From Candidatus Omnitrophota bacterium (GTDB taxonomy: Bacteria; Omnitrophota; Gorgyraeia; Gygaellales; Profunditerraquicolaceae), in the NCBI GenBank assembly GCA_026387555.1, contig JAPLLM010000003.1:1935-36801 (forward strand): 34,867 nt of DNA, in the 5' to 3' direction. The translations under genes were made by a program, and so were the position numbers. This document shows, piece after piece, positions 9,001 to 28,900 of this stretch (position 1 is the first letter of the stretch; every line of letters starts with the position of its first letter). Under the pieces are notes generated by a model. It saw only the letters and a list, made by a program, of their open reading frames with translations. It was not told where the DNA came from and did not search any database.

Positions 9001-12000
9001 GATGCCGGGTTTGTGGAAAGGCGATGTGCGGGCAAACTCCAGTGAATTGATACCAAGATATATGCTGCCTTGAGGCACCTTATTTTTGGCGGTGCCTGCG
9101 TGGCTTAAAAGAAGCGCGTATTTAAAGTCGGCGCCGCTTCCTTCCTGCCGGTAACAAATAGTGGGCAGGGCTGCGGCAGTATTGTAGCCCTCTTCCAGTA
9201 TGATGACGAATCTGCGGCCCGCGGCCTGGTCATTGCCTATCTCCCGGACTAAATCCTGCAGATAGATGAATGATTCCTTAAGCCGCGTCCTGGCAGGAGG
9301 GGAGCGCAGGGTGCGCGCCAAGGCATCCCGCATTTCAAACTGTGCGTCAAATATACTCCTGAAGAACAGCTCTGCGGTTTGCTGTATCCTCCTGTCATCG
9401 GCATTGTCAGCAAAGAGAAGATTAAAATCGAGCCTACTTATATTGTTGACGGCGAAGAACCTACCTTCGGCAATGGCTTTTTGCAACGCGGGCTTAGTAT
9501 GCTGCTCATGGTCAATGGCCATGCCGCTTTGGAATTTAAGGTCTTTGACCTGCTCTGCTTGAGCCTGGCCACTGGCAGCCTCAAGAGTATCCTGTAGAGA
9601 CATAAAAGATACCCTGCTTCCAAGGATTGTTTTAAGTAACTCTTGCAGTTCCGGAGTTTTATCTGAAACCTGCTTGACCGGGTGGAAACGGACAGTACGG
9701 TCCATAGTAACAAATAACGCATCCAGCGCCGCGGTAATATCGCCTAAAAGGTAGCTGTCCGGCTGGTAAATTGTAGTAACGAGGAAGGTCTTGTTACCTG
9801 TCTCCTGGATCTTTAATTCTCTTCCCTCAAACCTCACGGTCCGCTCGACTAAATTATTCTCCTTAATATCCCGGCTGATTAGTTCGGCGGTAGAAAGCTG
9901 CTTCACTAAAACCTTATTCCAGCTGATATCTTCGGTGACTTCTTTCTTCGAAATATACGGACAATGAAGCTGGGATTTTATGCGGGCGATCCTGGCTACC
10001 ACTTCATTAACCGGGGTTTGTTCCATTCTGGTGAATACTTCCTGCCTGAATGCGGCATCTGTTTCATAGCGGCGCTGTTCTTCCGGGGTAATGTAATTGA
10101 AAAGTTTAAGTAATCCTGAAACGCGCAGGATATAAGTCGCGGTATTGAACTCCGGTATGGCATTCTGATTGAATGATTTGTCAAAACAGAACCCTTCAAC
10201 GAGTTGATTGCGGCCCCGCACCTCGCAGACTGTTCCACCTGTCTCGGGCTTGCAGGTAATAACATATTCATCAGTGACATCCGCTCCTGCCTGGCGGATC
10301 TTGATATGTTTAGCAAGTTTAAACTTAGGATCTTGCGCAAATGCCTCTGCTATCGTAAAGCTACCGGTTCCCTCCATGCCGGTAACCTCATCCGGAATGC
10401 AAACTTCAAGGCCAAGGTTAGGGCTTATCGTATTCTTGACGATTTTCCCCACTGAAATCGGCTGACCAGTTTTCCTCCTGATGATCGTCTTCCACACCTC
10501 CCCCACCTTCACACTGTCGGATTTTCTAACCACGCTGACCATGATGGCCTTATCCACAACTTCGACTAACACATCTTTTCCTGAACGGCGTAAGATCCCG
10601 ATAAGCCCCGGATCAATAGTTGCGCCCAGGTTATCGATATTTGAAACTGAAACGTAGAGCGTGCCGTCTTTGACCATCTGTCCAAGTTTACCTTCCAAAA
10701 CTAACCACGGTATAGCCTCAAAGTGTCCTCCGGGGCAGAAATCCTCTTCCCCGGTTACCAGCCTGAATATTTCTCCTTCTTTGGTCAGCCGTTTAGTGAT
10801 GCCTACCCGGTATGGCCGGATATCCAGGCCAAAGTTATTGCGCTCTTCCAAATACTCCATTACCCGGTCATGGGTAGAGTAACTATTGGCGATATACACC
10901 GGTATACGTTTCCCGATGGCGAAAATATGCCCGAGTTTCACATCGATAAAAGTACGCGCAGCATTAAGCCAGTTATCAATAATGACAAAAAGCGCTTTGA
11001 CTGTGCCGCCGAAACGGGAAGCAAGGCCGCCATTTAAAAGTAACGAAGCAAACGCGCCTCGCCTGCGTAAAATCTCTTCGCCGGCCTTCTTGTCTTCTTT
11101 GGTAATATCCGACCAGGAGGTAAGTTCATTGCTTATTGGCTGCTTGGCATCCGGCTCGTGGTTATTCTGCTCTACGTCCTGTTTCGTGACGGCGCGGCAT
11201 ACATAGGTCATTTGGATAGCGTCGAACTCTGCGGCATTACCCAACTCTTCAAACTTACGCTCTTCCAGCATATGCTGGTTCATCTGCTCTGACGTAGAAA
11301 GCTCTATCTTTTGGCTTTCGGCATCGTAACGATAGACAAAATGCATATGCTGTAAACGGAAATAGAAATAGGAAGATTCGCGATAATGAGCAGTAGCGTT
11401 AATATTTATGGTGGATATTGGGAGGTGCCAGACAAACGGAAACTCCGCGAACTCTCTTTCAATTCCGTCGCGTATGGTAGTGTTATTGTTCCCGTTTTCC
11501 TTGCGGCTGCGGATACGGCTGCTAATGGCGTGCGCCACATAGCGGAACTCTGCTTCTTCGGCGCGCTGATGATTCCTAAAAGCCGCTTCCCCTGCCTCGT
11601 GGACGAAGGTAGCGACGGATTCGAGCTCGCCTAATTCTTCAAGGACGTCCGGGGCAATGATTATCCATTCGCCGGCAGCGCTGGTAAAGAGAACGCCGGT
11701 GGAACGGTTGAAGATATTGCGGATTATCTGCGCACGGTGGTCTCTTGATTGTAAAAACTTGGCCGGCGGAGCGCGTATATGCTGTGTGTTACGCAACGCC
11801 TCAAGCCGGCGCGCGGCCTGATGCAAACCAATAGTATCCAGGCCTTCGATTGCCTTATCTATCCTTGCCCGGGCGCTGGTATTTGCCACATCGGTAAATA
11901 AGCGTAAGTCTAACCCTGCAAACGCTTGTTCTACTTCTTCTCTGGCCGGGGTCTCCTTGCTTAAACGGGTGCGGAAGCCGACGTGGAAAAGGCTCTCTAA

Positions 12001-15000
12001 CTCCAGAAGAGCAATTATCCGGGCCCAGAGCGCCTGTAACATTTTGTAATGCAGGGTCTCTCCTATTTCAGTAAATAAAGCGTAGGACCCGGTTGGATGA
12101 TCAAGCTCTTTTCCGTCTTGGTCCATCAGGACGACAAAGTTAGGATGAGAACTTACATAACCTCTACCTTTTAACCCTGGAACAGTTACCCTGATACTTG
12201 TCATTGCCCTATGAAAGCGGGCAATCGCTTTTGCGTATTCCAGCTCCGGACGGAAAGTGATGTTGATATTGCCAATTGAACAAGAATCTGTATCAGATTT
12301 TTTGTGTCCGGAACACAACGAATTTACGCTCTGCACAAACGGAATAGCCATTAGCTTCTCGGCAATCCCAAGCTGCCTTAGTGCCGGGTCAACTATTTTC
12401 GGAGAATAAGGAAGTCTCGGCCCTTTTGCCACTCTCTTTTCTAACAATTTAGGGTTAAAAAGCCATTCTGCCGGAATCTTGCTCAAATCGATTACTTTAA
12501 ATCCTTCCGCCACCATCCCCAGCGCAACCAACGCCACGCCCGCTGCCAGCTCCGGCGAAACCGCCGCAACTGCGCCCAGGCTAAGGCAAGAGAGAACTGC
12601 AGCGCCTTCTGGCTTATGCTCAGCCGTGGTGGCCTCGGCCAGCTGACGGAAATGCGCGGCATATTTAAGCCACCTTTCGGCCTTACTAGGATTTTTCCCG
12701 GCAAGCTTCTGAGCTCCCTGCTCTAATGTTTGTGCGTGTTTGATTATTACTTCCTTCGTTAATATAATACCGGTGAATTTTTCATTAAAATATTCCTCGC
12801 CATACACAGGAATAGTGGTCAATTTCAATTCCTGCATTTCAGCTAAATTTCTCTCAGGAGAAAGCTGATCGTCGCTACTGAATCTAACATCGAGATCGTA
12901 GTCTCCGTATTGGTAAATCCATTTAAGGCCATCTGCGTCCACTCTCGAACCGTAGAGATCTTCAGCGGAGTTCAAAATAATTACGAAATCTATGTCTGAA
13001 GCATTCTCAACGGTTAAGAAAGAACCTTTGAATAAAATAGCTTTAGGAGGAGGCACTCCGGAATACTTCAACCGCCTTAAAATATAACCCACGCATTTCG
13101 AAAGCACCTGCCGTCTCCCTGGAATCTCCTTAATGGCAGCCTGTATTTCCGGCCAAATAAATCCGAGATTAAACAATAGTTCCCTGGCATCCGTAGGCAT
13201 ATTTTTCAGCACATATGCATAGGCATCCTTATATTCGTTAGCAGCTTTCGCAGCCCTTAGCGGTAAAGCAAAAAACACGGAGATAAATTGATGTAAAGCC
13301 TTGCCGACTACCGCGCAGTCCTCCCTAAGATACTCCTCATCTGTTTCTGATAACTTTGAAAAGGCGCGTAAAAACTTTTCGTCCTGTAATAAAATATTGT
13401 ATATGCGTTCCGATAAAGCCTGATAAATATTAGGTTTAGCCTGTGAAGAAAGCTTTGTCACGTCATGCAGTATTTCATGGCAGACGACTTCTGTTGAGGC
13501 ATCGCTCGCTACAAGGACAAGCCTATCAATTTTCTGATCAAACTGACGGGATAGGCGCGCTAAGAAATCTCCCGTGCCTGCGTTCATAGTACTAAATATA
13601 TACGTACCGGGGCTACTTAAAAGATTAAGCAATGGAGCGTCTGAATCGTATTCAGATGCGACACATTGCACATAAAAGTTCCTGACAGATTTTCTGGAAT
13701 CATCAACAATAATCCGCAGGCCCGGCCGGACAAACCCATCCCTAACTATCCATCTTGTTAATTCCAACTCCCGGTCATGATCTTCCTCCGCGCTGTTTAA
13801 AGCCACCATCCCCAGCGCCAGACACCCGAGGCCAAGCAGCGGGTCGGCGCTAAACAAGATCGGCGCGGCGCATAGGGTGACGGGCGAGCCGGAAACAGAG
13901 GAAGACAAAACTCTCGGCAAAGACCTTTTGCCTTTGCAGATAAGGGAAATATCGGTTATGCCTATCGAGGCAAAATATTCTATTAGCTTAGGCGACTCTT
14001 GTATCCTATCGCAAACTTTCCTGCATGCCATTAAAGGCCAAGAAGTACTATTAAGACCTCTCTCCATGGCGATTTCTTTAAACCCAAACCCTCTTAATCT
14101 TTGGCTGAAAATCTCAAGCGGGATTTCTCCTACTCCATTATTCTGCTTTACCAGGTTGACAAGCATCTTAACTACTTCTTCGGTTAATGGCTGTGTAGAT
14201 GCCTCTCCCTGTTTCCATCTGGAATAAGCCACCGCATCTTCAAATTCACCATCCGCTCTGCTCAATTCATCCCTATCTCCGTCAACACTAGAAAGCATCT
14301 GCTTAGTCTCTTTCTCCATGCGACGCTCTTTAACATAGGAACGAATAACAGCAAAACGAAGATATTTGTACCAGTAGCTCCGGAATGGCCTTATTCCGTC
14401 ATAATTGCGAAGCGAGCTATCTACTTCCTTTTCAATCTTAGCCAAAAGCAGTTGGTGTAAAAGACAGGTGGGCTCATTGAACCAATAATAATGCCTTCTA
14501 ATTCTCGGGTCATTAGTAATGGCGAACACCCTGCGTAAAGCTAATCCCAATAATATGACACGGCTGGCACTATTCCCCTGCTTAGCATCTTTGGCTAACT
14601 CCGTTAGAGTTTCAGAACCAATTTTAGCCCTATTGATACCGTCAATGAAACTGTCCAAACGAGCAGGTAGAATTTCCGCATTTGGATAGTCGCGAAGAAT
14701 ACATTTTGTCGCATCCCAATCTTCGTACTGCTTAGTTATTTTTATCCTATCCCGGATCCCCAAATGCTTTTTTAAAGCCAATACTGCATCTGCTTCGCTT
14801 TTACATAAGAACTGGTTACTGGCCCAATTAATCAGGCTATAAAGCGTACGGCCGTTAAATTCCGGTATCGGGTTATCAAAATGCATCAATCTTAGGCATT
14901 CCCGGGAATCCGGAAAATTCTTAAAGATGAACCCGATCATAAAAAGCTTAGCCTGCTTAGTCGCTACTCCCCAAGGGAATTTTGCAATATTAGGATTATT

Positions 15001-18000
15001 GTATAAATCTAAAACATTGTTTTCGTTAATTATAACCCGCGGCATCTTTATTTTAAGATAACGGAGCAGCTCTTTAATAACAACCTGCACCGGTGCATGA
15101 TGGTACCTTTTTACTGCCCAGGTATACAGGCCGCTGAAACCGTGGCCATTCAATTCTTGCCATTTGCATACATTAAAATGTGTTTGATTTAAACCAAAGA
15201 AAGCCGGGCCGAATTTATCCCTACAATGGCTGATAAGCCACCGGACCGCCTCGGCCTTTCCAAGCCGGGTAGTCATGCCCCACGGGAAACGCTCCGACTC
15301 TTTCAAGAGACTGATAACCTGCGACGCCCCTATCTCTCTTATCGGCTGCGTACTGGTGGAGCTTTTTATTATTCTCCCCAGTACGCATGTGCCAGCAACC
15401 AGCGCATCCGCTACCGGCTCGCCAGTAAAGACTGATAAACTTGAGAGTGCTGCAGCATTATTTACGGCCGCAACTCCTCCAAACAACTTCTCTTTTAATA
15501 TAGGGAGTGCCGCGCCCACCATTGCTATCGTTTTCATGGCCCCTATCTCTTCATCGGCTTGATTCAGAAGTCTGCCAAAGTTTCTAGGGTTATGTTCATA
15601 GAGGAGTTCCGCAGATAATTCCTGCGCCCTCATATATGTTTTTACCGCATTGATATTTCTTTCCTGCAGCTCCCCGGTTTTTCTTTCCAACTCTTTCAGA
15701 TTCAAGATAAAATTAGCCACGCTTCCCTTTGCCCATTCCGCAGCCAGAGGAACTCCCTTAAAGACTGTCGAACATGGATGCACATCAATCGAAGACATTC
15801 TTCTTGCCGATTCCAACGTTGCCAATCTCGCCGCCTGCTGATCCTTTACTGCAAATTGCTCTTTGACCGCCGCAAAAGCCGTAGGTATGCAGGTATCTGC
15901 CATAAATACCAGCGGCATGCCGTGTATCTTCATCGAAGCAAATAATCTGATTTTCTGCCACCCGATTTGCAGCATACCAAACACGGTAATCGCAAACAAC
16001 AACACATCAGGGACCCCAAAAACAGCCATCCCCATCACCGCATTGTTGGGCTTAGCGTCATCCTGCTGCATCCTCGCCCACCTATACAATGCCAGACGCA
16101 CATAGAGGGCCCTGAACAAAGAGTTGCTATATTTATTTACATTAATCCCGCTTTTGAAGTGATACAGCTGTTCATCAACATCATCGCAGGTAAAAAGAGA
16201 ATCTTTAGGTAGATAATCTAGCTTATTAATGACGAGGGTTCCTACAACTTCTCCCGTTGCTACTGCTTGTTTATCAAATTCAAGCTCACTGGCGATTACA
16301 TCTTCGGGCTTTGCCTTGATTCCTATCCTGCCTAACCGATCTATAATCTCCGGTCGCTTAAAAAACTCCTGGAAAGGTTGCCTGAACCCGCGGCCTACGG
16401 TCACTAACTTTATCCCGTCAACGCCGAGCACTCGCCTGATAAGCTGTAACGTTTTAAGATCATTATCGTTTAATTCCCAGGAATCCGCCAAGGCCCTGCA
16501 GTGCTCCGGTTTCAGCAACCCTCTGAAAAGTCGATAAAACTCTCTATATGCTTCCCCATCGCGCTGGGCCTTGATCTTTTCCCTTCCCATTTTAATCTTC
16601 CCTAAGAACGCAGCCTCATCGAACCCTTTGGCTGGAGGGTTGCTGCAAATCACCCTGTCCATCTGTAATGCCTGTCTGGCATAAGGACGAGTGACTGTTT
16701 CTTCGAAATCGGTATAAACGGTTAAAATCCTCGCTCTCTCCCCCGTCTTCTCGATAAAACGCGAATTACTTACAGCCCAACGTAGTGCATGCATGTAGCA
16801 TAATAACGCCCATACCGCCATTAACCCGACAGCGGAGAACGCAATAATCAGCTCCCCAGTCAGGCATAGCGCAAACGTAGTATTCGGCCTAGCTTCATTC
16901 GTTGTCCTGGTCGCCACCGCCGCGCCAGCCTGGGCCTGCAGGATTACTTCTTCGTTGCAAGCAGGAAATTCGGCGTGGAGGTTTTCGTGTTCGTAGATAA
17001 AGCTGATTACTTCTTTGGCTTGTGCGGCAGAGAAATGGTGGGAGAGTAGGATTTCTTTTACTTTTCGCTCATCTAAGTTGCTTCCTTCTCTTAGTCGATC
17101 AGCAAAGACAATTTCTTGAGTCTTAAGGTCATAGTAGGCGATACGGCTGGGAGGCCCGAGTATCCTGCCGGATTTGGCAAAATACTCTTGCAGGTATTTC
17201 TCTAAATAGGATAAGCCTGCTGCCACACGGAAAAACCGTCCTTTTGCTTCCGGAGCCATGACGCGCTCATACTCACGGATAAAACGGTATACATCGTCCG
17301 AACTTATATTGCGGCGAGTGGGTTCACTGGAAGCGGATTTTTCCTGAGTTCCCTGGCCCTTGCCAGGCTCATCTGCGGCAGGTGTCGCCGCCGCCGACAC
17401 AAACAACGCCTTATTATCTGGCTCATTCGTTATCCTAGCTGTAAACGCGCCCCCATGTCCTATAGTTCTTCCATCTGATGAATTATAAACTCTAGTTCCT
17501 ATAATGTTTTGAGTGGCAGGCCGCCTTGCGATAATATCAAATAAATCATGATGCCTAGTTGCTTTAAACATGGCATCGATAAGTCTAATATTTGTTTCGG
17601 CAGACTGACAATGTAACCGACATAATGGAATAACATTGCGATAAAATTTAGACTGTCTTAAGGCTAGCCATTCAGGACTATCGTTTATGACATTGCCAAA
17701 ATGCGGACCATTCATAATGGCGAATATACAACATGGATAGATATTCCCTTCCGAAGTAATAAACGGCATAAGTAAACTATAAGGACAGGAGTGAACTTCC
17801 CCTGCTGGCTGGGTTCTGTAATCATGCAATAATACCTGGTAATTGGTATGCTGCTCAAGGAATCCAGGCATCTCTTTTTGTAAGTCGTTTATTTGGACAA
17901 AAAGCATATCCCTCTGTTTATCACTAATTGCGACATCATCAAATTCATTTTTATGATCAAGCTCAATACCTGGCCAACAGGTTGGATAATTTCTTACCGG

Positions 18001-19419
18001 CCTAAATTGAATTGTCAATTGTTCTAGCTTTTCGGCAGGTACTCGCTCTCGCAGTTCATCTAGGATATTCTTTACTCGCCGAATAAATAAAGCAGTTTCG
18101 TGAATATTCTTTTGACCAAATACATATGCCACATGAACACTCGGAATTGGACCCAATAGATAATAACGCAAGTTCGCAAACACATAGTCTAAGTGCTGGC
18201 TACCTTTTAATGCGTAAAATGTCTCAACAGTGGCAGCATCTACAGAAAGACGAATCCAATTAATTGTCTTCTGCCAACTTCCTCCCGGGATCACCAGCCC
18301 ATTAGTGAAAAGTTTCAACTTTACAGAAGGCATGAGTTTTCGCAACCTCCAAACTAAATCATTAAAACGGTGAGAACCATCGCGGTAGATTGTTGGTTCA
18401 CCGCCACCAATCAAATCAATTGTTCGCGGTGATAAAGCTGCGAGACGGGGTAAGGCAGTAAAAGGAAAGTTGGAATGCTTATGTTGATATGGACAGTAAG
18501 AACAGGCTAAGTTACAATTATAGGTTGGACAAAAAGATAATTGGCTGAATCGGTTCCAAACAACAGGTTCGGTAGATAATAACTTAGCTCTAATCAATGG
18601 CAAGTGCCCTAAGAGGTAATTCGAGTTGCGTTCATGCTGAATAGCCGGCACTGCTTGGTCTGGATTTATTACAGCTTGCAATGCGCATGTGCTAACCCGA
18701 AATGCTGCAATACTATCGATTTCTTGAATTAAATTTGCCAATTCTTCTTTTGCTTGCTTCGAATCCAGAATTGTTTTCTCAAAAAGATGACTAAACGTTG
18801 TACCTTCCAACCCATCAACAGGCAAATCCAAATTATCCTTAACATTTAGATTCAAAGGAACAAATGCCAATTTCTTCTGGTTATTCTTGAGGAAAAGGGT
18901 TATTTGGAATGTATTATTCCTGAACTTTATACCTTGATTACTGATGATTTGATATGCGAATCCTCCTTTACCGTCACCATCTAAATGACCATAAATGCGG
19001 CTATTAGATATTAGGTTTCCATCTGGAATAGAAACAATACTACCTGGCTCAGCAACGATATCTAAAATCGTATTATCGATAATAACGTCATCGCCCAATA
19101 CCAACTCCACTCCTTCAGGCACCCGTATTATCGAGTGGTGAATCAAATATTGACTTTTTGCTTTAACTCGTCCTCGTATATCTGAAGCTATACATGCTTG
19201 GTCAGCAATGCCAAAAATATGGCGTAGCCGGCTAGACAAAAACCTTAACTGCGCATCTTGTTGTGGCAATAAATTTCGATAGAAATCATAGATATCTTTT
19301 GGTGAATTGAAGTGTGTAACAGGAGCGGCTGTTGTGATAAGCTGTGGGGCGACTTGTTGGCGAAATTCCTGTGAGATCTCCCACGTACGCTGCCACTTTT
19401 CTAACGAAGAATCCCTGCA
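1..19419 (-). CDS. Giant ORF C (>=6,423 codons in window, 3' end outside window; not in the supplied ORF track): membrane-tethered multi-enzyme protein
   Basis: The phase with codon first bases at coordinates divisible by 3 corresponds to + strand triplets read from each 60-nt line start. I codon-checked about 90 of the 324 lines explicitly: 1-1260 contiguous plus lines spread over 2101-19440. A continuous read-through translation of the rest met no tta/cta/tca in phase below the TAG at 19420-19422. None of the four minus-strand track ORFs in 1..19477 lies in this phase, as expected if the phase has no stop, since the track lists only stop-bounded ORFs. The translation is protein-like throughout, with many enzyme motifs. 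The first standard start in phase is TTG at 19269 and has no SD. The window ends mid-codon-string (...GQGLNVEGLTAEGWKI at 1-60). Confidence 0.85.
208..300 (-). repeat. Junction element copy 13 (ORF C)
   Basis: NSTSTHAFLILPGFEPVFTLAIGLGMVVTTL, translated from 181-300. The LGMV codons (caccaccatcccca, 217-230) resemble those of copies 9 and 10. Confidence 0.6.
360..1230 (-). other. NadD-like (cytidylyltransferase-fold) nucleotidyl/adenylyltransferase module with an insertion
   Basis: FRIGVYPVAANPFTWMHLIAGLAAIAEYKLDKIIYVIAGSDPRKASSLLADHPRHIMAQKV (1021-1210; cf. NadD iG.fGG.F.P.H.GH...a..a.....d.v..vp...pP.K...a....R..M). ETNIFRILN...IEAFYMVGRDHYNRW follows. After about 130 aa comes IIGMPFEVAATTIRQAFAGK...ILPYTAYCCCANGDFYG (370-500; cf. 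iSST.IR..l..g....lp..V..YI...glY). Confidence 0.5.
1650..2700 (-). other. UDPGP-family uridylyltransferase-like module 2 (more divergent)
   Basis: YVYAKPNAGLGSRWAVLGSEDIAKGTGIVP (2521-2640), DFPFLTLTSFSTDGEV, VKSDFTPAGHFGLIQSLITS (2221-2280) and KKHIYATSNIDNLVAFPEPVLMAMF (2101-2190). The motif order and spacing match module 1. Confidence 0.55.
4519..4602 (-). repeat. Junction element copy 12 (ORF C)
   Basis: SSTFAALFIPGLELMLLPLAVGLALVKY, translated from 4501-4620. Confidence 0.5.
4800..5520 (-). other. HD-superfamily phosphohydrolase module, HD-GYP-like but with degenerate GYP region
   Basis: NKAHNRRVSEYVSLLGREMRLKEELIDMVTRVAKVHDIGGIHIPLTEGGSFKAERE (5281-5460; HD codons at 5338-5343; cf. 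H..RV..y...la...AA.LHDIGKI.IP). Later comes ITNHFCYPEDPTEF (4921-4980), where HD-GYP proteins have HHE..DG.GYP, and LIFCDVWENGNNAERLMALRRIPY. Confidence 0.5.
5518..5637 (-). repeat. Junction element copy 11 (ORF C)
   Basis: NFRKTHSPVAHAFDFTTALLVGQMFDPISSAIMLAVGIV, translated from 5521-5640. Confidence 0.5.
7090..8420 (-). other. Second NTP-transferase-like module with coiled-coil insertion and C-terminal beta-helix
   Basis: GGFWFDVGNPKSYILTADFVATH (7321-7380 verified; cf. G.W.DvGt...Y). Then FQPSKVILENTDDVFLNRVAIKAGENSHVFIGRRVKLSNVNIELPDNTILI (7100-7260), which is beta-helix-like. A heptad-rich stretch EYKRLKQELEALKAEALHAGAEGKAALAEQIK lies upstream (about 7600-7700). The N-terminal limit is uncertain. 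Confidence 0.4.
10000..11130 (-). other. UDPGP-family (eukaryotic-type UTP-glucose-1-phosphate uridylyltransferase-like) module 1
   Basis: LLNGGLASRFGGTVKALFVIIDNWLNAARTFIDVKLGHIFAIGKRIPVYIANSYSTHDRV (10861-11040), FCPGGHFEAIPWLVLEGKLG (10681-10740) and QMVKDGTLYVSVSNIDNLGATIDPGLIGIL (10600-10680). Compare the UGPase motifs LNGGLGTSMG, PPGHGD and FVSNIDNLGATVD (from memory). Confidence 0.7.
12502..12606 (-). repeat. Junction element copy 10 (ORF C)
   Basis: GAAVLSCLSLGAVAAVSPELAAGVALVALGMVAEG, translated from 12481-12660. Confidence 0.6.
12700..13090 (-). other. Pol-beta-superfamily (minimal) nucleotidyltransferase module
   Basis: LRRLKYSGVPPPKAILFKGSFLTVENASDIDFVIILNSAE translated from 12961-13080. 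This is the hG[GS]-x9-13-D-h-D-h signature (GS...SDID). Confidence 0.55.
13200..13740 (-). other. Module containing an HExxH motif (HEILH); zinc-metallopeptidase-like?
   Basis: ...DRLVLVASDASTEVVCHEILHDVTKLSSQ translated from 13441-13500. HEILH = 13465-13479. No third ligand recognised. Confidence 0.25.
13795..13890 (-). repeat. Junction element copy 9 (ORF C)
   Basis: GSPVTLCAAPILFSADPLLGLGCLALGMVALN, translated from 13741-13920. The 17-nt string gccaccatccccagcgc (13802-13818) is identical to 12509-12525. Confidence 0.6.
13975..14520 (-). other. Sigma-70 region 2 / region 4-like (ECF-like) helix-turn-helix segment embedded in ORF C
   Basis: Translated codon by codon from 13981-14520. The r2-like segment is RRHYYWFNEPTCLLHQLLLAKIEKEVDSSLRNYDGIRPFRSYWYKYLRFAVIRSYVKERR (cf. 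ECF r2 ..f....F..Wl..Ia.N...d..R). The r4-like segment is LTEEVVKMLVNLVKQNNGVGEIPLEIFSQRLRGFGFKEIAMERGLNSTSWPLMACRKVCDRIQE (cf. r4 LP...r.vf.L....G.s..EIA...g.s..tVk.rl.RA...L). Confidence 0.35.
15961..16062 (-). repeat. Junction element copy 8 (ORF C)
   Basis: DDAKPNNAVMGMAVFGVPDVLLFAITVFGMLQIG, translated from 15961-16080. The NAVMGM codons share a 15-nt identity with copy 4. Confidence 0.7.
16792..16929 (-). repeat. Junction element copy 7 (ORF C), full form
   Basis: AGAAVATRTTNEARPNTTFALCLTGELIIAFSAVGLMAVWALLCYM, translated from 16741-16940. Confidence 0.7.
16945..17330 (-). other. Small (~130 aa) module ending in an HExxH motif (HENLH)
   Basis: ...LLSHHFSAAQAKEVISFIYEHENLHAEFPACNEE translated from 16921-17040. 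HENLH = 16975-16989. It sits between two junction elements. Confidence 0.25.
17362..17454 (-). repeat. Junction element copy 6 (ORF C), N-terminal half only; the hydrophobic hairpin is replaced by an Ala/Pro/Gly linker
   Basis: GGAFTARITNEPDNKALFVSAAATPAADEPG, translated from 17341-17460. Confidence 0.5.
17560..18560 (-). other. Radical SAM module with SPASM/twitch-like Cys-rich C-terminal extension
   Basis: LSFCPTYNCNLACSYCPYQH translated from 18481-18540. The CX3CX2C cysteines lie at 18514-18516, 18502-18504 and 18493-18495. IDLIGGGEPTIY (18361-18420). Distal segment: HSCPYSLLMPFITSEGNIYPCCIFAIMNGPHFGNVINDSPEWLALRQSKFYRNVIPLCRLHCQ (17581-17800). Confidence 0.75.
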
Positions 19420-19979
19420 CTAACTGAAACTCCTCCTTGTCGTCCAACGTTCCAGTTATGGACATTGCCAGTTTCACTTAGGATTTGGCCCAACCGAGTA
19501 CCGATTACATTTAAGGTCTCTGTTTTTGCAGCATAAAAACCACTTAAAGGCGGATCACGTTGCCTTTCCTGTTGTTCCATACCCAATACAACCAGCTTAT
19601 TATTACCTTCTATTTGCTGCTGCAGAAGCGGTATATCATCAGGCGTAAGCCAGCAAGCCGCATCTGCCGGTAACCAAACGAACCAATGACCACTTGGTAG
19701 AACTCGAGAGAAAATCTCTGCTTGACGAGTAGTAATTTCTGTTAAACGTTTACCCAATACAACAATATCTCCTTTGGTTTCAGACGCTAATCCAAGGAGC
19801 CCCTGACGTAAAGCCCTACCCCCGGTACTTGAACAAAGCAAAATATGATGATCTTGAGAAACTATATTAGCCTGAGCGAAATGATCTTTTACTTCTCTAA
19901 GAGTAACTATACTTTCTTTGCGGTCTTCTACTGCTGCCATCACAGAATTAACAGCCTTATCGCCAGGCCCTGGTGAAAT
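18960..19979 (-). other. NTP-transferase (sugar-1-P nucleotidyltransferase / fucokinase-N-like) module plus beta-helix, split across the ORF B / ORF C boundary
   Basis: ORF B C-terminus: HILLCSSTGGRALRQ (cf. GG.G.RL), HWFVWLPADAACWLTPDDIP, KLVVLGMEQ...PLSGFYAAKTETL. ORF C N-terminus: VTHFNSPKDIYDFYRNLL (19269-19322; cf. f.H.GT..EYL / W.D.G....Y), then IHHSIIRVPEGVELVLGDDVIIDNTILDIVAEPGSIVSIPDGNLISNSRIYG (about 18985-19145, left-handed beta-helix-like). Confidence 0.4.
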
Positions 19980-22900
19980 CATCGCATATTTCCAATGCTT
20001 TTGTAGATTTTCTGTTGTAAATGTTTTCTCAAACTTAGTTCGATAATATTGTGCCAATTCCAGAGAGAATTCTTCAATTGTCAATAAGGTAAAAAGGTAA
20101 AATGGACTGTTATGTGCATTTAATAATCTTTGAGATGCCAAGTTAATATCTTCTGTCATATCTGAAAAATCAACTAAAATCCAGCATCCCGCAGATGTCA
20201 TCATTGTATCAATCAGGATATTATCCGTATCCCAGTTAAAATACCCATGTTGCCAAATTTGCTCCTGTACTCCAAATGCCTCGTCTATCAGAATCCTTCC
20301 CAGAGCCGTGTTGCCGTGCGCCACAGCCAACCGCAAAGCGCCCTCTAGGGAAATTACGCCGTATTGCTGACTAAAAGCTGGTCCGCAATATAACTTTGCC
20401 CCCCTAACTCCGCGGAATCCTGGATAAAAATGTACATCTCCTATAAGACCTTTTAATTTCTGAGCCATGGTTACAACTTCCTGCATACTAAGCGCTGGTC
20501 GGGATAGAATACGAGTAACTATATTTTCAAACGCGGTCCGGAGCGTTTTTCTTTGTTGAATCATCTTTAATATCCGGAATATCATATTGATAGAAATAAC
20601 TTTTCTTACCAAGCTCTCAATAACCTTCTTAAATAAAGAGCTGCGTATCTGAACATTGGTGTGAATAGGCGTATTTACATTTTTATTCTGAACAGTGTTA
20701 AGGTAATGACGCTTAGGAATTTTAACCACCCTACTGGGATCTCTCCAATCTAGATAGGAACCCATGTTTTTACCGTCGCGGATAAATACAAGAGGAGATG
20801 TTCCTTGCTTAATTAAATTTTGCTGTTGGCGGAATTGCCACAGAAAATTTCGTTGACGAACCAATCCCCAAACCATTCGCAAGGCCTCCCCGCAACGACT
20901 GCCTTCTCTTTGACTAATCTTAAAAATCACTGGCGCCTCTATCAATCTAGCACCAATAACATCCGCCCGACCGAGTAGATTTGTATCAAATGAGGTCCAG
21001 TAATCAAAAGCATTATCCCAAATTCCATCTATAGTAACCGGGAGGATTTTGTCAAGAATGTCACGCGAAAACGCCTTAAAAGGACACTGGGTATCTGTTA
21101 ATGCTGAAAGCCTGGGCAAACAACTACGCACAATCCAATTATAGCTATATGAACCAATATTCCGCTTTAGCCCCCGTTGTAATATCGAACCTGGGGCAAA
21201 CTTTGAAGCAACCCCAACATTATTTGATGATTCCATGGTAGGACGTAAAATAATACCCTCTAATGCCAAATCTATGGCTGGCCGAATATGACCATAAATC
21301 ACGTAGTCTGCGCCACCCTTGATAGCATGGGCCATCCCATATGTGGCACCCGGCCCAAACCTGCCTCCTAGGCGATTGCAAGTCTCCCATGGTATTTCCA
21401 AGAATTTCAACTGCCCTTTGACTGCGTACGATAAACATTCCTGCTTAATTTTATCCTGCCATAATTCTGCAGGGGTATTTCTATAACTTTCTTCATGGAC
21501 AACAATCAATTCCCATTTTACATTCGGATTAAATCCATAAAGATCCTCCAGTTGTTCAAGACGCGTTCTGAGATATTCACTGCGCGCGTGATCCTCGGGG
21601 CGAGAAAGGACCATAACTGTGCTGATTTTGGTTAACACTGCTATACGACTAACCTGACGGTATGATTCAAACAATAGTTTGGCTTCCGGTTGCTGAGAAA
21701 ATACTGTTCCTAGCATACTCAAAATGGCAACGCCGCTTTCTTTTAATGATAAAGCTAACGCCATACGTAATAAAATAAACCTTTCCCTTACGGCAAGGTT
21801 ATTACTTCTGTCTGTGCTCAAAACCGCCCGACAGAAATCAAGCAATTTATCTGATTGTTTTGTTTTAACAATCTGCTGAAGAAGGCGTTCTTGGTACTCA
21901 AAACTGTCTTTAGCAATAACCCTAACCTTATTCTCTTCACATATTTCAACAGTGGCTATTTGGAGTAGCAGCACTTGTGAACGCGTTGCCGCTTTCCATT
22001 CATCAAGCAACTTACGCTGCCGCCAAATTCGGATGAAAAACTTGAGTGATAGCCAAGGGCTGACCACAGATAATCGCGGAGAATGATGCATACAGCTGGG
22101 CACTTCCCCAACGCGATAACCGCGCACTTTAGCTCGAGAAATCCATAAGTCGCTAGATGTGTAAAAATAATCGAAACCTTTTTCAAAATCGCCCTGAGCA
22201 GATACAGGAAGAATGGTATCAATCATTTCAGGCTTTACGCCTTTAAGCGCATTATGGGTATCCAGGATATGTCCGACAGGCAGGACGGTACGGATAAAAC
22301 GGTTCAGCACTATGCTGTACCAATAATACAGCCTGCCCATATGTAATACGCGTCCCTTTACACGGTTAGAACCAATGACAAGGTCTAGAGAACCTTCCAT
22401 AAGTGGTTTTATAATATTCCCCTCCAAGCCGACATGAGTATCTAAGTCAACGTTGGTGTAAATAACAATACCTGCGCCCAACTGCACAGCTTTGCGCATA
22501 CCGTATAAAACTCCAGACCCCTGGCAACCCTGAATTTGTTCTTTTAAGCTTTGATCGACTTCAAAAACGCATATCCGGCCAGATTTTAGTTCCGCTGTGA
22601 ATTCTTTCCGCAAAATCCCGAGCATTAAATCTGTAGTTTTAAAACTATTTAATGATGATGTGTATTTGCGGTCATCGCCATCTTGTACATAAATTAGTTG
22701 CCAATCTAAAAGCGGATTAACGCTAAAAAGTTCCTGCAACTGAAGAATCTTATTACGCATGGCATCTTCAGCTCCCTCAAACTCAGATTTCTTTTGAATC
22801 GACAGTTGATGTCCATAAACCGATATAACCGTAGCGACTTTAACCGGAGTGCGTATACGATAAAAACTAAGATAAGAATTAACCATGAGCTTAGCCTCAG

Positions 22901-25900
22901 CTATCATCTGAGGCTCCATACGGCAATCCTTAATAAGTCGTTCTAAGAAATCAGCTACAGTAGCAGCGTCTTTCCGTTTCAGAACGGCTGAACAGACTGT
23001 GGCGATTAATTGCAATCTTTCATTAGCAGGTAGAATAACGTTGATACTTTTATCGCGGTATAGAGGTAGCCCCAGAATGTCTCTCAACAAGACAAATACA
23101 TCTTCTTGCTTGGCGTCCTGAAAGATATTTCGCAATTTTTCTTGGCGTAGTAATTCATCTCGGATAGTCAATATTGTTACCAGCGGACTAGTTAAGGGTA
23201 CTGAAGACCTGACGCATGTTATGCCAACTGCAACTAATACCAATACACTGGAAATAAAGTAGGGGTCAACAAAGGGTAATATCGATAAAACATTGTTGCT
23301 ACTTCTATTCTCTGTATTCGCTCGTACCGCCGCGCCGACAGCTTTCTGAAATTTAAGAAGAACACCATTAATTGACAATTTTAACTTTTCAGTTGAACCG
23401 TTATTGTCGATTACTTGATTCGACATGCTCAAAAATTTTCGCTCAGAAGGAAATCCGGGGTTCTTGGCAAATCTCTTCTCTGCTAACTGTTTAGTCATGC
23501 CAAATTTACTAAATCTTGCTAACACGGTTTCCTTGCGTGCCGTTTCATTTCTACGTATATACCAAACCTCATCCCACAACGAGCTCAAGCCAAGTATATG
23601 GTTAAAAGCACAATCGACAATAATTAATCGGTTCCCCTGAACAAGTGCGCCTCGAATCTCCTCTAATACAATCTTTGCTATCGCAGGAATAAATATGCGT
23701 CTGAACTTTCTGTCTATGCGCATCACCAATATTTGCTTACCACCGATACCGCTTACTACTTCAGAGCACTGCTTAAAGGCAGAGCGCATTATTTCACGAT
23801 ATCTTGGGTTTTTGGGGAATTCGTGTTCGGTGTCAATTACGCGATAATTTAACGAAACCAGATAACTTGCTACTGTGGACTTTCCGCTTGCCGGATATCC
23901 CATCAATGCGATAATTTTTGCGCCTTTTTTATTTTTTAAAGCCAATAATTCTTTCATTTCACTAGACTGGGAATTACTGGTTACAAATGTCTTTATCCAT
24001 AATGCCACCGCGCCAACAGCTATACCTACAATCATTACTGCAGTCATAAGAAAATCGCCCAACACCATTCCCATCACCGCATTGCCTGACTTACCGTCAT
24101 TCTTCACCACGGTCGCCGCCGCGCCGGTATTCTTAAGCATAAATGGCTGCTCTCCCAACGCAATACCAAGCTCCCTATCTTCCTTAAGTTTCTCTAAGAT
24201 TGTGTTTACGATTTGTTCATGAATCAAGCACTTTATCCCGCAAGTTTTACAGATTTCCGGATCGTGCTTAATTTCTTTGCTTCTTTCTAATACTGCTTCT
24301 ACCGAGGCTTGCGAAAAATCTCCGACCTCAAAGTCTCCACGCCATGCATTCAAGGGATGCTCAAGGTAATCGCATAAAAATCCTACCCCAAAAGGATTGA
24401 CCACCATTTTGGACATCCGGATTTGGCAGGTCTTTGCCCTCGGCATACCGGTCAGGAATTTCTCATCGCCTCTTAAATCGTTCTCGGTCATTCCTCTCAA
24501 ATCTAAGCCCATCTTCATTTGTTTATTATAATTATATTTACCGCTCCGGGCATTCTCCTGCATAATAACAATCTGTCGCAAAATCTCTGCAATCTCCACT
24601 GGATTAAATGACCTGACAATCGCGCCCATATCAACTCTCACGGCAAGAAAATCGACGCCTAAATTATATGCCCAATCCGCGGCTTTCAGGATATCCCGAT
24701 AATTAGATGGTTCGGGGATCACTAAGTAAGTCAGACCGATTTCGACTTTAAAACCCGTTTCCCTCTTCCTCGTTACCAGTTCTCTGATATTGTTTTCTAC
24801 CCTCTTAAAGTTAAATTCTGGTTTAATTGGCCGGTGGACACTGCGGAACATTTCTTCGCCAATTGCAGATATACTAAATCTTACCCATCCGCTTTCTAAA
24901 GCAACTTCACGTGCCCGGCCAGCCAGAAGCTGACCGTTGGTGTATAATTTAGTACGCAGGCCCAGCCTGTTTGCTTCATCTAATATATGCCAGGCAATAT
25001 CTGTAGTAAGCGGCTCCAATCCCCCGGAAACCCAAATTTGTTCTGTCCCGCCCTTAGCAAATTCCCTGACCAGCTCTCTGGCTTTTTCGGCGGTCAAAGG
25101 TTTTCTGCCATTCCTGCTATCTTGATAACGGAAAGGACAATCTTTGTTGTGGTTGGTATAACAATATACGCATTTATAGGGACACCATGTGCCCGGATGA
25201 AACTCTGCAAGAAGTGGATAGACAACGGTTTTCTCATCAAAAATCCCCTCTAAACTCTTGCAGTGCTGCAACTGGAATTCGATCTCCCCTGCCACGCCGG
25301 CAAATTCGCTGTTATTGATCAACATCTGATGCAGCCCAGACACAGAGCGCAACATTCTATACGCCCGCAATAACTCACTGACTGAAAGATTGTTTCTTCT
25401 GCAGATCTCTTCGCTCTTGGCAACCGGAACCAATAATAAGGAACTAAGAACAGCGGCGGTATTCTTCAAATCTGGGGCTGAAATCTCATTACCTGATTTC
25501 GTAATCAGGCCTTCCAGGATCGGCGCAGCTTTTTCCGGGTCATTTTTCAGGAGTCCGGCGAGGTCACTGAGCGCCTGCGGCCCTTCAAATAAGAACTTTC
25601 TCTTGGTTGGATTAAACGGTCCTTCCGCAATAACTAGGACACGATTAGGGGAGGTATTCAGGAAGCGAAAACGATGTGCGGAAAAATTAATGGCCTTATC
25701 CCCTGCTTTCAATGAAACCGTGTACCGTTCCTTGGCGTGCTTATCCGCGAATACTGCCTCGCACTCGCCTTCTAAAAGCATGACCATATCCAACAACGGA
25801 CGCTCATCAGACCCTGCTTTATCCCAACTTAAGGAATTAACGGGTGGCTCTAAATGCAGGTACTCACCTTCACCGGATCTATCCTGCGGAGTCTTTAAGC

Positions 25901-28900
25901 CTGCGCCTAATGGGTTAGAAGGAACAAGGATGGGTTTCATCGCCTTATACTTCGGGTCATTCTGCCATAAATTGCTAGGGATAGCCGCAATTAACTCGCC
26001 GCCTTCTCTTATTACGTTAATATCATTAAGTAAGTCGAGTTTTTCTGCCAAGGTTTGCGCTTTTTTATCGATTATTCTATTTTTGCTGGCAAAAATCGTA
26101 AAGACAGCACCCACGCTTGACGCTTGCAGGGTATACGGAACGTACAAAGCCGCAATTCTTCCTTTCTCCAACGAAACCTTCTTGCCGGCAAACGTCAGCT
26201 CAACATCCCCATTTTCAATAACTATAATATTTTCAATACTATCTTCTTTCTGTTGATAGCATTCTCCTTGCCTGCTGAACGCTCTCGTTGAAATTGTGAT
26301 TGTCTGGCCGACTTCGTCGAATGATGCGACACTGCCTGACCTCATAATGATAGCAAGACGATCCCCTCTGCTATTCCGTACTTCCTCCATTATTCCCAGT
26401 GCAAAAATTCCTAACCCAGCTAAAAGTATATCTGCAGCCGGTTCGCCGGTAGAAATGAAAGGAATAACGAGGCCCATTGTCGCATTGCTTGACTTAGCTT
26501 TATTTGTTGCCCTGGCCGTCACCGCTACGCCGAACTTCTTCGCAATAACCGTAACCAGTTCCCCTCTTCCTCCAGCCTCTATTTGTTTTTTATTTTGGAT
26601 TACGCGTTGGAAATCTGCATCCGAAATCAGGCCATGTTCATGCTCTACGGCAACCCAGCGTTCATTAAATTTAGTTTCCAAATGCACTATCTCAAATCCG
26701 CTTTTCTCAAAAAGCATTCTTAATGTTTTCGGAGAGAAGTAATAGAAGTGGCCTATTTTAATATCGGAAAATTCCCTACCCTGGATTCTTCCTACTTCGC
26801 TATCCAAATTAGGCAATCTGGTTATGTACAACAGTCCACCATCCTTTAAAACCCGGCGCGACTCAGCTAATTCTGCGCTTGGGGCCAAAAGATGCTCTAA
26901 TGTTGCAAAATAACCCAATAAATCCAGCGAATTGCTTTCAAAGTTACGTTGGTGCAATGTTCCGTGAAAGGCCTTAAGGCCGTCCCGTGTTAACAATCCT
27001 ACCGCTTCCCTTGAAGTATCAATGCCTTCAACATCGAAGCCAAGTTTAGCTGCAGCTTTAAGATGATGTCCAGGGAAACCGCAACCGACATCCGCCATTT
27101 TCACTTTTTTGACATCGCCTAAATAGCGAGAAATAAATTCTATCTCCTGTGCTGCAGCGGCTTCCCTTTCAGGGCTAAGTTGATAGAAACCAGGCTCCCA
27201 TTCTATAACCCTAGGATTACGCACATAAACCAAGCCACAATTCCCGCACCTTACGATTATATCCTTTCTATCCGCCCGATAGCCATGTCCCGGAATCTTT
27301 ATTTTTCCGAGAGGAATATTCTCATCCTTTGCCAGAATTATCGGACCTACCCTAAATAATTCTATCTGCCTACCAGACCCACAAAGATTACAACATGTAA
27401 TTTCCGCTTCCGCCGAAACCTGCGGTTGCCCTACTTCTCTGAGCCCGTTAGCGATTAAATCCGGAGTTATGTTTTTGAATTCTTCGTTTTTGATTAAAAC
27501 AGTGTACCCGCTCATTTCCGGCACTCCCCAGCCATTAGTATAGAAACTATCAGGTGCCCTTTTCACGCGCGGATAGATAAATACAACAAACTCTCCGGAC
27601 GGCATTTTCTTCAATAAGATATCCAGCATATCCGGCTTAAAGCCCATCCGGATAAACTCTTCTACTTTATTTCTGGTAAGCGCCTTTACCTCTTGGCTCA
27701 CTTTGCCTCTAAGTAGTGTGTTATCCACCGGCCAGGATGGCACTCTACCTATACTCACCGCTCCCCTTTGCTCTTTAACTTCTACGGGTTGAGCTTCAAT
27801 GCTAAACCTATTCAGGCAACCTTGGAAATGGAAATGTTCTGGGATACTTCTGGCGGGACCGTTAAGGAACAGGCTTACTCCCGGAGCTTCAGCCACGAAA
27901 TCAAAAGCAACATTTAATACCTCTTCATCCCCCACAGTCTTGGTTTCTTCCCCGGTATGCCTTTTTGCCGCTAAGACAAAGCCGTGTTCCCTTGTCCAAG
28001 TAAAAGGATTTATAAGAATCCTATAATCACGCCAAGAGAATCCTCTCTGAGCCAGCGGCATAAATTGCGGGCACAGGTTACACCTCGTCCCACTCTCCCC
28101 GCCTATCTCTTTTATATCCAAAGCCAGACGCTTGATTAATAGTGGGAGGATATATATCCCATATTTTCTGGTGTATGTTAATGGGTGTAAGAGCATATCG
28201 GCGGCATTCTTTGGCTCTGCTGATAAACTTACTCCTTGTTGATAATGTTTGGGGTCGCGGTGGGCACAATAAGCCGCCTCAAACGGATCTACCTTCTTTG
28301 TCTCTATCCCCTTTATTCTGGCATCGACAAATCCCACTTTGCGCTGCTGCCAAGAAATGGCCTTGATTATATCCGTCATAGTGTATACTCTCAACCAGCG
28401 CAAGGATAATAACAGTAATCCTGCTGTAAAAGGATCAAAAGCACCAGAAATTTTATGATGCCACGCTACCTGTTCGGGTGCATATTTTAGATAGTTTTTC
28501 AGCACTAAGATTGTTGCTAATACTATAACTACTGCTAGTATCGCTGTACCAGGGAAGGAAATTAATGAATTGCAATTTACATCTGTGGATGGTTTATTTT
28601 CTGATGCAGGTTTTGTTGCGGGACTAGACTGTACATTCGGCGGCGCCTGCGACTGCTGCTGACTGGCTAACTCCCTAATTTTCTGTTGAGCGTTTTCGGG
28701 GGTAAAAGAAGAGACAAAAAGTATGGAATTAGTAAGATCCAAAGAATGGAAATAATAATTTATTGTTCGACCGGTAGTTAGAGGTTCGAATGCCGTATAA
28801 GAATCAGGACAAATTTCACTTTCGCTTTTTTCTAAACCATCTTCTTTTTCTCTGGCAAGATCTAAGCTTAAACTTATCACAATACTAGCCAATATGGGAT

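Follow-up and report, generated by a model that had tools for sequence, protein, structure and literature searches.

Giant proteins of the Omnitrophota include a described class of multi-enzyme, membrane-anchored polypeptides (bioRxiv 10.1101/2023.11.21.568195; bioRxiv 10.64898/2026.06.07.730766). A gene resembling this class is carried on a stretch of 34,867 nucleotides (nt) from a Candidatus Omnitrophota bacterium (assembly GCA_026387555.1, contig JAPLLM010000003.1, positions 1,935 to 36,801), which as a whole is referred to here as the window. As in the described giants, the host belongs to the Omnitrophota, the open reading frames (ORFs) are very long and have scattered hydrophobic segments, and enzyme kinds listed for the class (methyltransferase, radical SAM and sugar-nucleotide enzymes) are present. 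The window gene differs in being deposited as two pieces in two phases, ORF B with 3556 codons and ORF C with at least 6473, which length-based catalogues would miss or undercount; a single ORF of at least 10,000 codons appears only after frame repair. A keyword search of the two preprints cited above found no mention of frameshift-split giants. The layout is also that of the ordinary frameshift-split ORFs of draft genomes and metagenome-assembled genomes (MAGs), in which adjacent ORFs overlap briefly and occupy different phases, the downstream one is startless, homologues are continuous and a domain is divided. The junction between B and C differs from these in scale alone, with about 30 kb of coding sequence hanging on one position. 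B and C derive from a single ancestral ORF with a length of at least 10,029 amino acids (aa). The break between them most likely reflects an error in the sequence or its assembly, or else a mutation of very recent date, and not a regulated frameshift.

Three very long open frames, all on the minus strand, fill nearly the whole window as coding sequence. ORF A (30055-34866) exits the window at its right end. ORF B (19401-30071), the upstream piece of the interrupted giant gene, has a TTG start according to NCBI and a TAG stop, and its frame is open over 19404-30077. ORF C (1-19419), the downstream piece, exits the window at its left end and contains no stop codon in 19.4 kb, while off-frame open stretches in the window reach at most about 310 codons. 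The ORF B protein is 100% identical to MCX5710362.1 (P0001 in our searches), which is deposited as 'MAG: DUF4922 domain-containing protein [Candidatus Omnitrophota bacterium]'; a literature look-up found no paper mentioning this accession, and ORF C was not found as a protein in the collection searched. ORF B carries DUF4922, methyltransferase and radical SAM domains, and ORF C two UDPGP-like domains.

ORF B ends ...GRQGGVSVSAGILR-TAG, with the stop at 19401-19403, and ORF C opens immediately after a C-frame TAG at 19420-19422, its first open position being 19419. The overlap between the two is 19 nt, the B stop counted, and C lies at -1 relative to B. In the B frame the junction reads ...GGA CGA CAA GGA GGA GTT TCA GTT AGT GCA GGG ATT CTT CGT TAG, and in the C frame ...AGT TAG TGC AGG GAT TCT TCG TTA GAA AAG TGG.... 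The frame change must fall in the 16-nt interval TGCAGGGATTCTTCGT (19404-19419, minus strand), which is bounded by the two TAG codons, and the longest homopolymer run in the overlap is the GGG at 19413-19415. A preliminary description of this locus, made from the DNA letters, had given the B stop, the opening at 19419, the length and phase of the overlap, the GGG run and a nearby Shine-Dalgarno (SD)-like site, and all of these coordinates are correct. Its estimate of more than 10,000 aa for the fused protein also agrees with the sum of the two pieces (3556 plus at least 6473 aa).

Relatives of the junction region were collected by an index-free HMMER search, in which the query was a fusion of the last 497 aa of B with residues 3-500 of C, and 304 were found. 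A family profile was then made from 13 homologues only, with the window sequence left out, and was scored in the three frames. The B frame matches nodes 9-164 of this profile (E 6.6e-35) and the C frame matches nodes 192-418 (E 8e-65), with the C-frame match beginning exactly at the opening of the C frame. The N-terminal half of the module (19461-19940, minus strand) corresponds to B residues 3380-3539 (nodes 8-164, E about 1e-33 to 1e-35) and holds a G-rich loop, STGGRALRQG, together with the family-invariant residues G43, R47, K58 and D95. The C-terminal half (18754-19413, minus strand) corresponds to C residues 3-222 (nodes 192-418, E about 1e-62 to 1e-65) and consists, in order, of a helix, a strand with THFNSPKDIY (family consensus W.N.NTP.DI) and a left-handed beta-helix (LbH), with a weak LbH match to dynactin p27. 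Every family-invariant residue is kept: B retains those just named, and C retains W185, N214 and S272. Across 14 sequences, neither G43 nor R47 varies. Judged from these sequence comparisons, the cutting of one module by the boundary is far beyond chance.

At least 14 homologues hold both module halves in one chain. The junction is spanned by one HMMER domain each in P0002, P0006, P0012 and P0089, and both halves follow in order along one chain in P0009, P0010, P0030, P0065, P0121, P0127, P0038 and P0106. Stand-alone module proteins of 419-466 aa include P0006, P0009, P0010 and P0030, and an alignment-based metagenome scan added one distant homologue, a continuous 464-aa version of the module on a JGI contig (L005). 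Among the homologues carrying both halves, none is split at this site. P0150, which seems to start inside the module, was considered as a second split and rejected, since its contig stops at that point with the frame still open. Comparison with related loci had been proposed as a check on whether the frame is continuous; the distant homologues are continuous and none keeps two ORFs. This comparison rests on relatives of 21-35% identity and is limited to distant relatives because no close orthologues were found in the collections scanned, either by protein-pattern scans of GTDB genomes and JGI metagenomes or by an alignment-based genome scan. A word-index search with the fused junction (queries of 995 and 281 aa) returned nothing, though the queries hold 497 and 119 residues identical to P0001, a protein of the searched collection that the index-free search did recover, together with 303 relatives. 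With the homologue profile divided over both frames, the homologues continuous and the fold single (see below), the claim that the B/C boundary cuts through one nucleotidyltransferase (NTase) and beta-helix module is upheld.

ORF C has no usable start, as had been claimed. The first ATG, GTG or TTG in its frame is a TTG at 19267-19269 (minus strand), codon 51, which encodes the last L of ...KDIYDFYRNLL; the position of this codon inside a conserved motif had been recognized before and is confirmed here, and no SD sequence precedes it. GTG first appears at codon 100 and ATG not before codon 363, which lies within the following domain, and no well-placed SD sequence lies upstream of the early C start candidates. 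A start codon with a ribosome-binding site for C near the B stop, which translational coupling would use, is likewise lacking. The 50 codons preceding the TTG (19270-19419, minus strand), in which there is no ATG, GTG or TTG, match nodes 198-244 of the homologue-only profile with an E value of 1e-13, and are coding sequence without a means of translation start.

The neighbourhood of the module is also colinear with its relatives. In the giant proteins P0002, P0038, P0086, P0106 and P0131, the equivalents of B 2300-3080, B 3210-3540 and C 3-237 follow one another, each time within a single polypeptide. In the window, the unit upstream of the module (19992-23006, minus strand; B residues 2358-3362) is colinear with a separate 1002-aa gene on a contig of Logan SRR20819497 (L002), with which it shares 32% identity over 1034 aa (E 8e-152). 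The unit after the module (17593-18528, minus strand; C residues about 298-609) is radical SAM-like, with a CNLACSYC motif and many homologue matches, P0003 among them being named a radical SAM protein, and it corresponds to the third gene of the same cassette. Positions 138-5674 of L002, compared with 17593-23006 of the window, carry three slightly overlapping genes (overlaps of 38 and 11 nt), which encode a 1002-aa protein with sub-threshold GT2 similarity, a 466-aa NTase-LbH module equivalent to B 3383-3522 plus C 3-190, and a 391-aa radical SAM protein. The cassette is found both as separate genes (L002) and in fused form (the window gene and the giants P0002, P0038, P0086, P0106 and P0131). 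Assignment of the upstream unit as an APH-like kinase was dropped, as it has no Pfam support and the homologues show only sub-threshold GT2 similarity.

The arrangement in L002 bears on the question of whether B and C could be truly separate genes, through gene fission or as a split enzyme, in which case translation of C would begin by reinitiation or coupling, at TTG 19269 or at a non-canonical start. Separate overlapping genes for a related cassette, and the annotation of B by NCBI as a stand-alone protein, speak for such an arrangement. In L002, however, one gene border falls at the equivalent of B about 3362/3383 and the other somewhere from C 190 to C about 320, which places both at the edges of the module. 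The natural gene borders of the cassette are therefore module edges, whereas the border in the window falls in the middle of the module. A start at TTG 19269 would also remove the conserved W.N.NTP strand, and the startless first 50 conserved C codons, the missing SD sequence before that TTG and the continuity of every homologue at this site stand against two genes as well. Separate genes are the least probable of the explanations considered.

Structure prediction for the fused 421-aa module, using a 14-sequence alignment, gave an AlphaFold2 model that forms one unit (predicted local distance difference test, pLDDT, 80.5; predicted template modelling score, pTM, 0.82). The sole disordered internal stretch of the model, residues 162-178, is the junction loop, and the B/C border lies at model residue 178, inside a single fold and not at a domain border. 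Independent folding of the B C-terminus and the C N-terminus had been named as an outcome that would speak against one module, and the confident single unit gives no sign of it. In a Foldseek search of the PDB, the top 50 matches are all sugar-1-phosphate nucleotidyltransferases, most with a C-terminal LbH, and include FKP GDP-fucose pyrophosphorylase, VTC1/GMPP, ST0452, GlmU and ADP-glucose pyrophosphorylase. E values are 2.4e-6 to 1e-3 with a probability of about 1.0, at low TM-scores of 0.3-0.43 and identities of about 8-12%. The alignments span 290-540 columns and fewer than 180 query residues precede the junction, so they must cross it.

Characterized enzymes of this architecture, among them FKP (PDB 9iit/9iis; PF07959), GMPP (VTC1, GMPPA/B), ST0452, GlmU and ADP-glucose pyrophosphorylase, are like the module in predicted fold, in which a Rossmann-like NTase domain is followed by an LbH. 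They share with it a G.G.R loop near the first strand, a Lys and an Asp that are conserved and, preceding the helix, a strand of the form W.(D/N).(G/N)(T/S)P, and differ in having GGxGTRL where the module family has G.G.RQG...GSKGDI. A Pfam search with the fused module (E <= 10) returned no match, NTP_transferase and PF07959 included, and the best Pfam hint among the homologues is a sub-threshold match of P0009 to PF07959 (E 0.17). On the evidence of the predicted structure, the module is sugar-1-phosphate-nucleotidyltransferase-like with a left-handed beta-helix, and the identification made in the preliminary description is right at the level of fold. The module belongs to an uncharacterised NTase and LbH family without a Pfam model.

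Programmed -1 frameshifting of the dnaX type offers a second point of comparison for the junction itself. Both show a -1 phase relation and an upstream SD-like element, here about 11 nt before the shift interval. The junction differs in lacking a slippery heptamer and a downstream stem-loop, and its shift is not conserved among homologues. The element, AAGGAGGAG at 19430-19438 (minus strand), encodes QGG in the B frame and lies 11 nt upstream of the 16-nt interval. A programmed -1 shift, or another form of recoding, that is stimulated by this element could join B to C and set how much of a 3556-aa product is made relative to one of more than 10,000 aa; besides the strength and placement of the element, the intact and startless state of C is in keeping with such a shift. 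The sequence T GCA GGG ATT CTT CGT TAG contains neither an X XXY YYZ heptamer, as had been noted, nor another plausible re-pairing site, and the downstream RNA (19300-19425) folds no better than its shuffles (minimum free energy -24.6 kcal/mol against a shuffle mean of -25.8; z +0.35). The shift site would moreover lie in the middle of a catalytic domain, leaving the short product to end in half a domain, and 0 of the at least 14 homologues are broken here.

These ORFs show no depletion of SD-like motifs, whose overall frequency is about that expected by chance. On the coding strand over the window there are 29 occurrences of GGAGG (about 36 expected) and 7 of AGGAGG (about 10 expected), and AAGGAGGAG occurs twice; the only other copy, at 7396-7404, encodes KEE. 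With 7 occurrences in 34.9 kb, a given point has a chance of only about 1% of lying within about 40 nt of an AGGAGG, and for this reason the SD-like element near the junction is not wholly dismissed, although its presence at 19430-19438 is probably incidental. A programmed, SD-stimulated shift, which had been put forward as an alternative, is improbable in view of the missing slippery site and structure, the chance-level motifs and the lack of a split homologue. Slightly less probable again is that the deposited sequence is correct and that Omnitrophota ribosomes shift by -1, or recode, at a non-canonical site just downstream of AAGGAGGAG. Were the sequence correct and the fusion still made, the site would be an unusual recoding site, and nothing found here points to recoding. 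Under non-canonical recoding, a single mRNA would give rise to the 3556-aa protein as well as to a fusion exceeding 10,000 aa, and would thereby dose the distal two thirds of the giant protein.

The preliminary description had also pointed out that a 1-nt indel in 19404-19419 would fuse the frames as well as a -1 change would, and a plain indel is favoured over a programmed shift. The break is best explained by an indel introduced in the consensus or assembly, the gene itself being continuous in the cell, a reading to which we assign a probability of roughly 0.47. In this reading, the deposited sequence would have undergone a net loss of one base (or a gain of two) somewhere in 19404-19419, inside the module of roughly 400 aa, dropping the frame to -1 and sending B into its TAG. 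The cell would make one polypeptide, in which the half with the G-loop, Lys and Asp (from B) and the half with the W.N.NTP strand and beta-helix (from C) are predicted to form a single catalytic domain. Alternative frame repairs all score 312-314 bits against the family profile, and the position of the repair within the interval is therefore not narrowed. The 6473 open codons of C and the invariant residues kept in both halves imply that there has been no decay after the break, which is thus an artefact or very recent. An old pseudogene is excluded by the same stop-free C frame, as set against off-frame stretches of at most about 310 codons.

The artefactual origin of the indel, as opposed to a real mutation of recent date, is what we infer, and several observations weigh against it. 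Long homopolymers are the typical cause of indel errors, and none is present in the overlap, where GGG is the longest run. The window holds at most one other frame change (that between A and B), so the assembly is not generally indel-ridden. In addition, profile nodes 165-191 (WW..L(I)RP..L...(Q)W), otherwise universal in the family, are absent from all three frames beside the break (window 19455-19475), in the stretch where the structural model is disordered. This loss points to genuine local remodelling, which fits a real mutation somewhat better than a base-calling slip. The deposited sequence is compatible with both origins.

A real frameshift mutation that arose very recently in the sampled population is possible, at a lower probability than the artefact; one base may have been lost, or a small piece of the junction loop deleted or duplicated out of frame. 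In that case, a truncated 3556-aa protein ending in half an NTase domain would be made from B, and the 19.4 kb of C would be silent and undecayed. With more than 30 kb, the gene offers a very large target for mutation, the site has no long homopolymer, and the missing WW..LIRP..QW segment beside the break suggests that an indel really occurred. Also consistent with this origin is a direct repeat, TTC(A)GTTAG: TTCAGTTAG at 19420-19428 contains the C-frame stop and TTCGTTAG at 19401-19408 the B-frame stop (minus strand), and removing 20 nt at 19406-19425 restores the frame, as does adding one base, the reading becoming ...GGVSLEKWQRTW.... A small duplication or insertion may have left this repeat behind, or it may be due to chance. 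Such a mutation must nevertheless be extremely young, given the 6473 stop-free codons of C and the retention of all invariant residues, and the loss of two thirds of a giant gene is probably deleterious, and the consensus of a MAG represents the majority allele. A 16-nt insertion that includes the SD-like element was also tried, as the C frame upstream of its TAG reads LERW, similar to the lost L..QW, and was dropped since it needs two in-frame stops.

The other junction of the window, between A and B (30055-30077, minus strand), has a mirror-image layout. ORF A ends ...RPFVYLCG-TAG and the B frame opens 23 nt earlier, in the +1 phase; A and C share one phase and B lies in another, so that a +1 shift is needed from A to B and a -1 shift from B to C. 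The B start given by NCBI, TTG 30071, has only a weak GAGG 4 nt upstream, and a GTG at 30059 overlaps the A stop. This junction could be a second frameshift in an even larger gene, or a true gene border, and is covered by none of the homologues found. ORF A is rich in hydrophobic segments, with about 21 of them, and B and C have scattered hydropathy peaks.

Within ORF B, a unit of about 370 aa is duplicated in tandem (residues 2306-2670 and 2723-3059; window 20901-23162; phmmer E down to 1e-25), and the unit is also repeated in the homologous giant proteins. The two UDPGP-type (UTP-glucose-1-phosphate uridylyltransferase) domains of ORF C, at 1860-2532 and 10545-11181 (minus strand), are mutual paralogues (E 1e-9); together with the junction module, they give the giant protein at least three nucleotidyltransferase-type units. 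A further intact paralogue of the module had been proposed at 7090-8420 (C residues 3667-4110), where the GGFWFDVGNPKSYIL motif and beta-helix-like repeats are indeed present, but similarity to the module family is borderline (independent E 0.01-0.5) and the proposal is weakly supported. This region, which contains the second AAGGAGGAG copy mentioned above, resembles the subtype represented by P0127 and P0102 (GSFWFDTG). On the opposite strand, inside ORF B, lies a 288-aa antisense ORF (25390-26256, plus strand; 308 codons open). Its length is unusual for a GC content of 45%, and it is probably a side effect of codon bias; a Pfam search with the long antisense ORFs of the window and an Rfam scan of the window returned no match.

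The biology of the break is ordinary, that of a frameshift-split ORF in a MAG, and it is notable only for affecting a gene of more than 10,000 codons. Breaks of this kind can be recognized without reads, by scoring a homologue-only profile in all three frames and by colinearity with giant and stand-alone relatives. As a by-product, the comparison defines a conserved cassette composed of a protein of roughly 1000 aa, an NTase-LbH module and a radical SAM enzyme. For the Omnitrophota giants, the consequence is that a single position splits a gene of about 30 kb, the upstream piece of which is listed by NCBI as an ordinary 'DUF4922 protein', and a protein of more than 10,000 aa is thereby hidden from length-based surveys.

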